21,528 bases of DNA from a virus. Taxonomy: Duplodnaviria > Heunggongvirae > Uroviricota > Caudoviricetes. Under the pieces are notes generated by a model. It had not been told where the DNA came from. It searched no databases and worked only from the letters and a program-made list of their open reading frames with translations. The position numbers and the translations under genes are program-made. The stretch lies in the IMG/VR virus record IMGVR_UViG_2526164668_000015. One strand, 5' to 3'. Positions 2,924-6,591 of this stretch are shown one piece after another. The stretch's first letter is position 1. Each line of letters opens with the position of its first letter.

Positions 2924-3056
2924 TTTTTTGGACTCCTGGCTGATTAAGTATGTCGATAAGGCGTTTCCATCCGTCACGTAATTTACGGGTGATTCGTTCA
3001 AGTAAAGATTCGGAAGGGCAGCCAGCAACAGGCCACCCTGCAATGGCATATTGCAT
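2892..3056 (-). CDS. cIII: CIII (FtsH/HflB inhibitor), 54 aa
   Basis: Hand-translated, below the track cutoff: [54 protein letters not shown]. This is lambda CIII, overlapping the kil 5' end as in lambda. Confidence 0.9.
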   Translation of the reverse strand: MQYAIAGWPVAGCPSESLLERITRKLRDGWKRLIDILNQPGVQKNGSNNYGYPD

Positions 3057-3128
3057 GGTGTGCTCCTTATTTATACATAACGAAAAACGCCTCGAGTGAA
3101 GCGTAATTGGTATGCGGTAACGCCGCGC

Positions 3129-3497
3129 TCAGGCGGCCTTGATAGTCATATCATCTGAATCAAATATTCCTGATGTATCGATATCGGTAATTCTTATTCC
3201 TTCACTACCATCCATTGGAGGCCATCCTTCCTGACCATTTCCATCATTCCAGTCGAACTCACACACAACACCATATGCATTTAAGTCGCTTGAAATTGCT
3301 ATAAGCAGAGCATGTTGCGCCAGCATGATTAATACAGCATTTAATACAGAGCCGTGTTTATTGAGTCGGTATTCAGAGTCTGACCAGAAATTATTAATCT
3401 GGTGAAGTTTTTCCTCTGTCATTACGTCATGGTCGATTTCAATTTCTATTGATGCTTTCCAGTCGTAATCAATGATGTATTTTTTGATGTTTGACAT
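3129..3497 (-). CDS. ea10: Ea10 (lambda early protein, 122 aa)
   Basis: MSNIKKYIIDYDWKASIEIEIDHDVMTEEKLHQINNFWSDSEYRLNKHG... matches lambda Ea10 in sequence, length and position. Confidence 0.9.
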   Translation of the reverse strand: MSNIKKYIIDYDWKASIEIEIDHDVMTEEKLHQINNFWSDSEYRLNKHGSVLNAVLIMLAQHALLIAISSDLNAYGVVCEFDWNDGNGQEGWPPMDGSEGIRITDIDTSGIFDSDDMTIKAA

Positions 3498-3515
3498 CTG
3501 TTCATATCCTCACAG

Positions 3516-3543
3516 ATAAAAAATCGCCCTCATCTTGGAGGGC
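3516..3543 (-). terminator. intrinsic terminator in the pL operon (tL2-like), upstream of ea10
   Basis: On the minus strand, the GCCCTC-CAAGAT-GAGGGC hairpin (3526-3543) is followed by GATTTTTTAT (plus-strand A run 3516-3525). Confidence 0.6.
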
Positions 3544-3685
3544 AAAGAAGATTTCCAATAATCAGAACAAGTCGGCTCCTGTTTAGTTACGAGCGACATT
3601 GCTCCGTGTATTCACTCGTTGGAATGAATACACAGCGCTGTGTTTATTCTGTTGTTTGCGTGAAAATGAAATCCGCCTGAGCGGG

Positions 3686-4555
3686 TTATGACCACTTTTT
3701 GTTTGGGTTTCGTTGGTGAGCGTGGTTTACAGGATTATTTGATATACCCCATAACTCTGACTCGCTTATCTCTACACGAGAGAAAGACCTGCTTTCTTTC
3801 AGTTCTTTTATAAACCTAGAACCTAAGATGACATCTATTGTACCAGAAAGTTCTTGTAAAAGATCTATGTTTTTTCTGAGGAAGAAAATATCTTCTTTAT
3901 ATTTAATTTTTACATAGAATTTATTCTGTATTTTTAATATATCAAAGCATGGCAGATATCTATATCCCTCATATTTTCGCCACTGCTTAACAATTATAAC
4001 ATCTTTTTCATTTACTGCATTAATCAGCCCAAGACCAAGTACAGGTATGAATATTCTATTGTCTGCCGAAAGCGTACAATTATCACCACCAGGCAAATAT
4101 GTATAAATCATGTCGGAATTTTTATACGCATCAACGAATGCACGTAAGAAGCGTACATATTTTTGCCATCCGTTTATACCGAATTTACCATATAAGTATT
4201 CTTTATTTGTTAGAAGAAAACTATTTGTATCAGGATCCTTATCTACAGACCTGTCGATAAGATCTCCAACTACGTTTACAAAGTCAAAGACAGAGTTTAA
4301 TAAGAACAATTGTCTTTCAGTAGGGCGAATTTCAATTATGTAGCCAGGATGAAGACGATATTGCATCTGCTTACGAAGTATACCGAACGCTTGGGTCCGA
4401 GCATCTGAAAGCAACTTCTTGTCGCCATCGCCGTGAGCATTGTTTCTAATAAAACTGATATAATTTGCTAATTTTTCAGCCTCTTTTTTGTGTTTTTTTC
4501 GCTCTGATGCTGAGTCTATTGGTTTTGGTATGGACTTGTAATCAATCTTCTTCAT
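3686..4555 (-). CDS. orphan low-GC protein (289 aa from ATG 4555; 293 aa from ATG 4567); function unknown, candidate exclusion/defence moron with motifs resembling the TnpB N-terminal half
   Basis: Single uninterrupted ORF. The minus-strand junction reads GGC ATG AGG TAC GTA ATG AAG, so the N stop TGA sits inside ATGAGGT and GAGGT gives an RBS 5 nt before the second ATG. The gene is very AT-rich compared with the flanking lambda genes. I recognise no family with confidence. Confidence 0.8.
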   Translation of the reverse strand: MKKIDYKSIPKPIDSASERKKHKKEAEKLANYISFIRNNAHGDGDKKLLSDARTQAFGILRKQMQYRLHPGYIIEIRPTERQLFLLNSVFDFVNVVGDLIDRSVDKDPDTNSFLLTNKEYLYGKFGINGWQKYVRFLRAFVDAYKNSDMIYTYLPGGDNCTLSADNRIFIPVLGLGLINAVNEKDVIIVKQWRKYEGYRYLPCFDILKIQNKFYVKIKYKEDIFFLRKNIDLLQELSGTIDVILGSRFIKELKESRSFSRVEISESELWGISNNPVNHAHQRNPNKKWS

Positions 4556-4563
4556 TACGTACC

Positions 4564-4887
4564 TCATGCCAATGGAATGGATTCCCCTTTAACCTTTTGT
4601 CTTCCTTGACAAGTTATACCGAACTCACCTGGCTTGCTATACCAAACTCGATGATTCTTGCGCTCAATACGTTGCAGGTTGCTTTCAATCTGTTCGTGGT
4701 ATTCAGCCAGCACCGTAAGGTCTATCGGATTCAGTGCGCTTTCTACTCGTGATTTCGGTTTGCGATTCAGCGAGAGAATAGGGCGGTTAACTGGTTTAGC
4801 GCTTACCCCAACCAACAGGGGATTTGCTGCTTTCCATTGAGCCTGTTTCTCTGCGCGACGTTCGCGGCGGCGTGTTTGTGCATCCAT
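4564..4887 (-). CDS. N: antitermination protein N (107 aa)
   Basis: Internal start of track ORF 4564-5019: MDAQTRRRERRAEKQAQWKAANPLLVGVSAKPVNRPILSLNRKPKSRVESALNPIDLTVLAEYHEQIESNLQRIERKN... is lambda N with its arginine-rich motif. The last residues diverge from lambda. Confidence 0.95.
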   Translation of the reverse strand: MDAQTRRRERRAEKQAQWKAANPLLVGVSAKPVNRPILSLNRKPKSRVESALNPIDLTVLAEYHEQIESNLQRIERKNHRVWYSKPGEFGITCQGRQKVKGESIPLA

Positions 4888-5044
4888 CTGGATTCTCCTG
4901 TCAGTTAGCTTTGGTTGTGTGTGGGAGTCGTAGTCCTGAACGAAAACACCCCGCAATGGCACATTGGCAGCTAATCCGGATTCGCACTTCCGGCCAATGC
5001 TTCGTTTCGTATCACACACACCAAAGCCTTCTGCTTTGAATGCT

Positions 5045-5074
5045 GCCCTTCTTCAGGGCTTAATTTTTAAGAGC
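5045..5074 (-). promoter_or_regulatory. nutL (boxA + boxB)
   Basis: The minus strand reads GCTCTTAAAAATTAAGCCCTGAAGAAGGGC. The boxB hairpin GCCCTGAAGAAGGGC lies at 5045-5059 and the boxA-like GCTCTTAAA at 5066-5074. Confidence 0.9.
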
Positions 5075-5115
5075 CTCACCTTCAATGGTGGTCAGTGCGT
5101 CCTGCTGATGGCTTA

Positions 5116-5238: not shown

Positions 5239-6591
<1,353 letters not shown>

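Follow-up and report, generated by a model that had tools for sequence, protein, structure and literature searches.

Nun, TnpB and the Phage 434 Gene

Transcription arrest by the Nun protein of phage HK022 is exerted by its C-terminal peptide, which enters the cleft of RNA polymerase and keeps the enzyme from translocating. In the arrested elongation complex Nun is ordered at residues 87–109 only, and this span holds all known arrest determinants, namely N97, H98, H100, R102, K106, K107, W108, and the terminal carboxylate of S109. Removal of the 13 C-terminal residues abolishes both the activity of Nun and its binding to the polymerase (PMC5386594). The boxB element is merely a tether for Nun and is dispensable in vitro, overproduced Nun kills E. 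coli via transcription arrest without nut sites, and HK022 nun mutants have no lytic or lysogenic defect (PMC4124055). Exapted, nuclease-dead members of the TnpB/Cas12 group form another set of described factors. Those of TldR type keep an inactivated RuvC and a guide RNA, and repress by RNA-guided DNA binding (PMC10691335). Both systems are compared here with a gene of phage 434 (the 434 gene) present in the Caudoviricetes record IMGVR_UViG_2526164668_000015, of which the whole analyzed stretch, 21,528 nucleotides (nt), is called the window.

The 434 gene is proposed to encode a modular Nun-like transcription-arrest factor, in which a TnpB-derived WED-REC domain would act as the targeting module. 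This reading, built on analogy, is given a probability of about one half. The window is coliphage 434, its positions 3500–5100 being 99.9% identical to OL657226, in which the product is named "Nun C-terminal peptide-containing protein"; the Nun tail was thus already noticed by the GenBank annotators. The protein is basic (isoelectric point, pI, 9.5) and falls into phrog_12139, function unknown. The gene and the parts of its product are as follows.

3686–4555, minus strand: coding sequence of the 289-amino acid (aa) protein (phage 434 CPT_434_48), with the start taken from homologue starts and GenBank.
4361–4510, minus strand: basic two-helix hairpin, residues 16–65, pI about 10, found in the phage clade only.
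3896–4351, minus strand: predicted TnpB/Cas12-like WED-REC core, residues 69–220 (strand 71–77, helices 80–145, strands 152–219).
3779–3895, minus strand: long helix of the structural model, residues 221–259, where RuvC would begin in TnpB.
3758–3796, minus strand: ESRSFSRVEISES motif, residues 254–266, invariant in the phage clade and represented by S-x-S-Y-S-R-V-D-F in the distant clade.
3689–3730, minus strand: VNHAHQRNPNKKWS, residues 276–289, the Nun tail.

Nun Tail

The tail of the 434 protein is identical to residues 96–109 of HK022 Nun, i.e., to the peptide that arrests RNA polymerase translocation, and the identity extends to all the arrest determinants listed above. PHROG 5632, "Nun-like transcription termination factor," matches residues 274–293 in the numbering of a 293-aa form (E = 7e-5), and Nun (6alg_N, chain N of PDB entry 6ALG) is the sole significant match among PDB sequences (E = 1e-3; last 14 of 14 residues identical). 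In both proteins the tail is disordered and occupies the extreme C-terminus. The Nun tail must be C-terminal because its terminal carboxylate forms a salt bridge with R102 (PMC5386594).

Homologues from other phages, 36–68% identical to the 434 protein, keep the tail with its N, H, H, R, K, K, and W invariant, and their tail codons have diverged synonymously. Judged from these sequences, the tail is ancestral to the phage clade and under purifying selection.

Among viral contigs, a back-translated scan placed the tail at the end of 58 Nun proteins of the HK022 type, about 25 further small proteins and 32–33 members of the 434 family, the last being the only large scaffold among them. The tail occurs on three kinds of protein and is thus a portable module. 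The small proteins (80–125 aa; L022–L141) end in DAMHxVVNHAHQRxPxKKWS and have N-terminal halves unrelated to that of HK022 Nun, which suggests a diverse family of Nun-type factors with different targeting parts. Several single cases were also seen. On one strand of a single viral contig (L045) two tail-coding matches, 3257–3292 and 3556–3591, lie about 300 nt apart and may belong to two tail-bearing genes in tandem. In Hafnia phage Pocitis76 (L006 2740–3680) N is followed by ORFs 3001–3267 and 3375–3680, both annotated "transcriptional regulator." They match different parts of Nun with 43% identity, and may be a split or duplicated Nun-like gene downstream of N. The 96-aa protein P0008, the first 23 residues of a lambda-type Bet fused to the last 73 of a 434-family protein, is evidently a deletion derivative in a defective prophage that kept the tail.

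Outside the tail the 434 protein (289 aa, against 109 aa in Nun) has no similarity to Nun. Residues 1–85 of Nun gave no blastp match to family members, and the phmmer and PHROG matches span the last 20–27 residues only. No arginine-rich boxB-binding motif is seen in the 434 protein, the N-terminus being lysine-rich and helical. Both genes head the early-left operon of a lambdoid phage, but the 434 gene follows N, whereas nun replaces it. The 434 protein is thus neither small (about 110 aa) nor encoded by the first gene after the repressor and pL, and only the homologue in L002 and L087 occupies that slot. The proposed targeting module also differs, being in the 434 protein a folded, TnpB-like domain of about 150 aa.

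TnpB/Cas12-Like Core

The core is the part common to the 434 protein and its relatives in defence islands. Its AlphaFold model, made with an alignment of 31 sequences, has a mean confidence (pLDDT) of 82 and a predicted template modelling score (pTM) of 0.71, with the core above 90 and the last 30 residues disordered; a model from a 4-sequence alignment (pLDDT 42.6) was unusable. The predicted topology, i.e., a strand, a helical insertion and beta-barrel strands, is that of ISDra2 TnpB (8H1J), ISFba1 TnpB (8IAZ), and RdCas12n (9UDI), and the core appears to have the N-terminal WED-REC lobe of the TnpB/Cas12 superfamily. Nine of the ten top Foldseek matches are Cas12 proteins, none of them significant, and the viral fold library BFVD gave no significant match.

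For profile comparison, the N-terminal halves of three solved TnpBs were taken from PDB alignments, since a protein search with InsQ had yielded only copies about 98% identical, useless as a profile. In local hhalign, residues 68–225 of the family align to TnpB 3–170 with a score of 19.7, higher than that of the reversed control and of all but one of 200 column shuffles; against InsQ alone, the family gave nothing (probability 0.2%). Colinear motifs are h-h-L-x-P-x3-Q at the first strand, h-Y-h-P-x-x-G-L and K-F/Y-Y-h-x-h. Similarity to TnpB in sequence is not significant, so the relationship is detectable only by the fold and the weak profile signal. On the model, the core has the WED-REC architecture of TnpB/Cas12 and is probably derived from that group.

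The core lacks every other defining feature of TnpB/Cas12. The RuvC-like nuclease domain (OrfB_IS605) with its catalytic D-E-D is absent, the WED-like strands being followed by one long helix and the disordered tail. By Pfam there is no zinc ribbon (TNB; OrfB_Zn_ribbon), and the protein has only two cysteines, C160 and C203. At about 65 aa, the REC part falls short of that in TnpB/Cas12, and neither TnpA nor transposon ends adjoin the locus. No trace of a guide-RNA locus was found, either as an Rfam match or as conserved flanking non-coding DNA among family loci. Nor is there room for one: the gene overlaps N, the downstream DNA is common to lambda and HK022, both without the gene, and the relatives embedded in bacteriophage exclusion (BREX) operons are packed with gaps of 23 and 35 nt. 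The 434 protein would resemble TldR in putting a TnpB scaffold to a transcription-linked, non-nuclease use, but unlike TldR it has no RuvC at all and no visible guide locus, and carries a polymerase-jamming peptide.

An earlier note on this DNA had picked out by eye five elements colinear with the N-terminal half of TnpB. Elements 1 (IEIRPTERQ...), 3 (IFIPVLGLG), and 4 (NKFYVKIKY) fall in the hhalign register against the TnpB N-half profile and on the matching strands of the model. The case of element 2 (AYKN), a motif that the family does not conserve, is ambiguous, as hhalign places it about nine residues off. For element 5 (GTIDVILGS), the assignment to RuvC-I is not supported: it lies inside the model helix 221–259 and lacks conservation. 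The protein was said to end after element 5, without the rest of RuvC or a zinc finger; these are indeed missing, but 43 further residues follow, including the invariant ESRSFSRVEISES and the Nun tail, the decisive feature, which the note overlooked, just as it did not recognize phage 434 or the product name in GenBank. As for the checks it proposed, comparison with Pfam OrfB_IS605 and TnpB profiles gave the weak colinear hhalign alignment but no Pfam match, and structure prediction gave a WED-REC-like topology but no significant Foldseek match.

Family and Genomic Contexts

Close homologues form only four clusters among 5.8 billion proteins. The gene matches 117 of 5,426 complete E. coli genomes, in 83 of them near full length. 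Hosts of the phage clade are Escherichia and Pantoea, and its gene always heads the early-left operon. It immediately follows N in 434, L004, L007, L112, and L095. In L002 and L087 it occupies the N/nun slot just behind the repressor, and in L139 it precedes an HNH gene and an N-like gene. Of the 33 copies in viral contigs, about 29 are 96–100% identical and accompany an imm434 cI and a 434-type N. In L139 (2307–4462) the family member is followed by an HNH_3/AP2 ORF and a 95-aa N-like protein that ends in GKSIPLI, as does lambda N. The phage of L095, with a 40%-identical family member, encodes a type I restriction HSDR_N protein between a cI-like repressor and N (1608–2762).

Distant relatives (P0010–P0035; 213–326 aa) were collected by an exhaustive profile search, and their loci were traced by a sub-alignment through the GGLPSLGK tail. 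They share residues ~73–225, i.e., the core, and the S-x-S-Y-S-R-V-D-F (or S-x-S-Y-S-R-V-D/E) motif before the tail (HMM E-values 1e-16 to 1e-4). They differ from the phage clade in lacking the N-terminal hairpin, in residing in chromosomal defence islands instead of a phage early operon, and in ending not in the Nun tail but in another conserved peptide, GGLPSLGKRR. This clade is betaproteobacterial (Dechloromonas, Burkholderia, Paraburkholderia, Neisseria). Its genes, whose BREX-embedded products are about 16–20% identical to the 434 protein, lie between brxC and pglX inside BREX operons, or next to a Pycsar effector, to MZB protein and UvrD-like helicase genes, or to NYN, RelA-SpoT, PLD, and MZB genes. 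From these neighbours the wider family is therefore defence-associated. PADLOC-DB v2 has no match for the 434 protein or for eight relatives.

The consensus of the second tail is (D)F(D)xLxG(R/K)xVxGGLPSLGK(R/K/G/H)R (L008–L011, gene 7001–7831/7867; L012–L016), and it has no Pfam or PADLOC model. A peptide of this type also ends a 103-aa protein of Bradyrhizobium (L018 8932–9243) encoded beside an AAA_15/AAA_21 ATPase. In L008 and L010 (11257–14867) genes for 376-aa, 423-aa, and ~610-aa HSP70-family proteins lie downstream of pglX, pglZ not being immediately next; they may constitute another embedded system.

Coupling to N and Module Boundaries

The 434 gene lies between N (4564–4887) and ea10 (3129–3497). 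The elements around it are listed here.

4564–4887, minus strand: lambda-type antiterminator N, the upstream partner in the pL operon.
4553–4567, minus strand: junction coupling N and the 434 gene, with the ribosome-binding site annotated in OL657226.
3524–3545, minus strand: predicted terminator-like hairpin with T-run downstream of the 434 gene, an annotated terminator in OL657226.
3658–4573: 916-bp module replacing lambda 34065–35046 (ral, orf28, sieB), bounded by the edges of lambda homology.
3516–3731, minus strand: DNA block ~95% identical to HK022 (nun 3′ end and downstream sequence).

The TGA stop of N (4566–4564) overlaps a first ATG (4567–4565), and GAGG (4565–4562) is the ribosome-binding site, 6 nt 5′ of the second ATG (4555–4553). 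The second ATG is the start in homologues and in the GenBank annotation; the first would give the 293-aa ORF (3686–4567, minus strand). A terminator scan predicted no terminator between N and the 434 gene, the hairpin at 3545–3524 being the only one predicted on the minus strand between 5300 and 3300. It follows that the gene is part of the immediate-early transcript from pL.

Lambda homology stops at window position 3657 and restarts at 4574, and the DNA between them therefore stands in for the lambda ral-orf28-sieB segment. The slot between N and ea10 is a known site of exclusion and anti-restriction genes. The 434 protein nevertheless has no sequence or structural relationship to SieB or Ral, DNA homology to lambda ending at the module edges, and lambda sieB is on the opposite strand. 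The lambda imm434 hybrid (H3) carries the lambda sieB/ral version and not the 434 gene. The HK022-shared block begins 46 nt before the stop of the 434 gene, exactly at the tail codons, and continues downstream across the IS903 insertion site of HK022; the mosaic joint therefore lies inside the ORF. The IS903 copy of HK022 (L005 2901–3957) sits in a block homologous to window 3619–3627, and the two blast segments flanking it overlap by 9 bp, as expected for a target-site duplication.

Much of what the earlier note had said of this locus holds, i.e., an ORF of 289–293 aa between N and ea10 (289 aa being favoured), in the sieB/ral position without sieB or ral, with a start coupled to N and GAGG serving the second ATG. 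Its hand counts of G+C (16/60 and 12/60 in two lines of the gene, 33/60 in one of N) are exact, and GC amounts to 34.6% in the gene, 48.8% in N, and 45.2% in the window. The recurrence beside N in other phages, for which it proposed to look, is seen in L004, L007, L112, and L095, while L002, L087, and L139 have a different order. The name "orphan" does not hold, as the gene has a family.

The idea that the 434 gene is Hex (heteroimmune exclusion) was rejected, hex being the ORF downstream of cI at about 5239–5715. That ORF (minus strand, overlapping the cI end) is 434 hex, which encodes a repressor-protection protein (PMC3564112); a GenBank note on it states that the published start codon is wrong. 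Another, ordinary lambdoid feature is the Rfam Lambda_thermo element (cIII thermoregulator) at 3011–3069, minus strand (88.5 bits, E = 2e-21).

Proposed Mechanism and Alternatives

The 434 protein would be made from the early-left pL transcript together with N. Residues 69–220, preceded by the helical hairpin, would form a basic domain with the fold of the WED-REC lobe, free of RuvC, zinc finger and guide-RNA locus. By analogy, this core would take over from the arginine-rich motif of Nun as the tether to particular transcription complexes or templates, and its ligand, which we infer to be a nucleic acid, might be DNA, RNA or a hybrid. The long helix and the disordered linker with the conserved motif would present the last 14 residues, which, if they bind RNA polymerase as those of Nun do, would jam it. 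The likely outcome would be transcription arrest on competitor phages or other targets, i.e., exclusion or takeover. The earlier note had offered an exclusion moron or a domesticated, nuclease-less TnpB as alternatives. The first, a moron placed at an exclusion hotspot, agrees with the position of the gene and with the relatives in defence islands, and a TnpB origin is partly supported; the two are not exclusive, and the evidence favours both at once, with the nuclease-less module as the targeting part of a Nun-type factor.

Several points weigh against this proposal. The grounds for a link to TnpB are a structure prediction and a profile signal that is weak: the hhalign alignment with the TnpB N halves has P = 0.054 and a probability of 1%, Pfam (even at E ≤ 10), NCBIfam, and PADLOC have no match for the 434 protein, and the family HMM found no TnpB among PDB sequences. 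On the side of the tail, the 434 protein lacks H93 and R94, the Nun residues in contact with upstream DNA, as well as the DAMH motif that small Nun-type proteins conserve. The distant relatives have a different tail, so the core may act with effectors unrelated to RNA polymerase. No promoter of its own was predicted for the gene in the promoter scan, and classical exclusion needs expression in the lysogen. Phage 434 uses a lambda-type N and nut, and a Nun-like activity made beside N must therefore spare its own transcription, for which no mechanism is evident.

Alternatively to this proposal, the protein might be a toxin-like effector of abortive infection, its core sensing or regulating, as the cores of the defence-island relatives would, and its tail, once activated, arresting RNA polymerase globally, not on specific templates, and shutting down the infected cell. 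Relatives in BREX operons and defence islands would suit this role, as would the toxicity of overproduced Nun without nut sites (PMC4124055) and the tail-only 103-aa protein beside an ATPase, and the second conserved tail, swapped in at the same position, suggests interchangeable effector peptides. We regard it as rather unlikely, given that the gene is co-translated with N in the immediate-early transcript of 434 itself, where global arrest would harm the phage, that PADLOC has no matches, and that no partner antitoxin or regulator gene is evident. Or else, in the slot of lambda ral, the protein may serve as an anti-defence factor, i.e., as a defence-system component that the phage has copied and that would interfere with the systems of the host. 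The exact replacement of ral/sieB by the module, the homologues embedded between brxC and pglX, and early co-expression with N speak for counter-defence. It is made improbable by the low identity of the BREX-embedded relatives, which are betaproteobacterial and have a different tail, and the conserved Nun tail would have no obvious role. Canonical E. coli BREX is not known to have such a gene, which also counts against it.

Regulation of the phage's own genes is likewise conceivable, with the protein tempering or timing N-dependent antitermination on 434 templates, e.g., through arrest of some of the pL/pR complexes, and not acting in exclusion. In every arrangement the gene either is closely linked to N or takes its place, and it accompanies the imm434 region and a 434-type N in most viral contigs (~29/33). 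Yet lambda and imm434 hybrids without the gene grow and regulate normally, and HK022 tolerates the loss of nun in both lytic and lysogenic growth (PMC4124055); autoregulation seems a poor prospect. The tail could, finally, be a passenger, its similarity to Nun an accident of a mosaic boundary inside the ORF and the function wholly in the core. The start of the HK022-shared block at the tail codons, and its continuation downstream, are typical of lambdoid boundary sequences. This is contradicted by the conservation of the tail in homologues of 36–48% identity from other phages, with diverged codons and invariant key residues, and by its constant place at the extreme C-terminus, and we consider it very improbable.

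The proposal of a Nun-like arrest factor can be extended to the whole family, in a form we hold to be speculative and unlikely. The family would then consist of modular defence and exclusion proteins in which a nuclease-stripped, TnpB-derived WED-REC domain recognizes a specific nucleic-acid feature and delivers an interchangeable C-terminal jamming peptide into a polymerase. Candidates for this feature are a DNA motif resembling a TAM, an RNA-DNA hybrid and a structured transcript, and an unrecognized RNA cofactor might still take part; the peptide would be the Nun tail in enterobacterial phages and GGLPSLGKRR in the BREX and defence-island copies. If this were true, the transcription-arrest device of 434 would be programmable or directed by sequence, with an evolutionary link to the ancestors of Cas12.

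Novelty and Meaning

A literature search turned up no description of the 434 protein, of its TnpB-like fold or relatives in defence islands, or of the tail as a modular element, and the announcement of the 434 genome passes over the gene. The classical lambda imm434 hybrids never carried it, which may explain the missing record of a phenotype. Nun has hitherto been viewed as a singular case, one small protein known only for excluding lambda. Its arrest peptide is instead a portable module on many scaffolds, one of them a large folded domain that resembles the recognition lobe of TnpB/Cas12, and the existence of relatives with another conserved tail suggests that the family is wider still.

The combination of a TnpB-like domain with the Nun tail suggests a previously undescribed way to aim a transcription block. 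Provided that the tail acts as it does in Nun, the 434 protein would be the first case in which a TnpB-derived module, its nuclease lost entirely, serves to jam RNA polymerase directly. Three fields would then meet, namely lambdoid transcription control, the exaptation of TnpB and anti-phage defence islands such as BREX, and the setting, one of the oldest model phages, makes the question directly testable.

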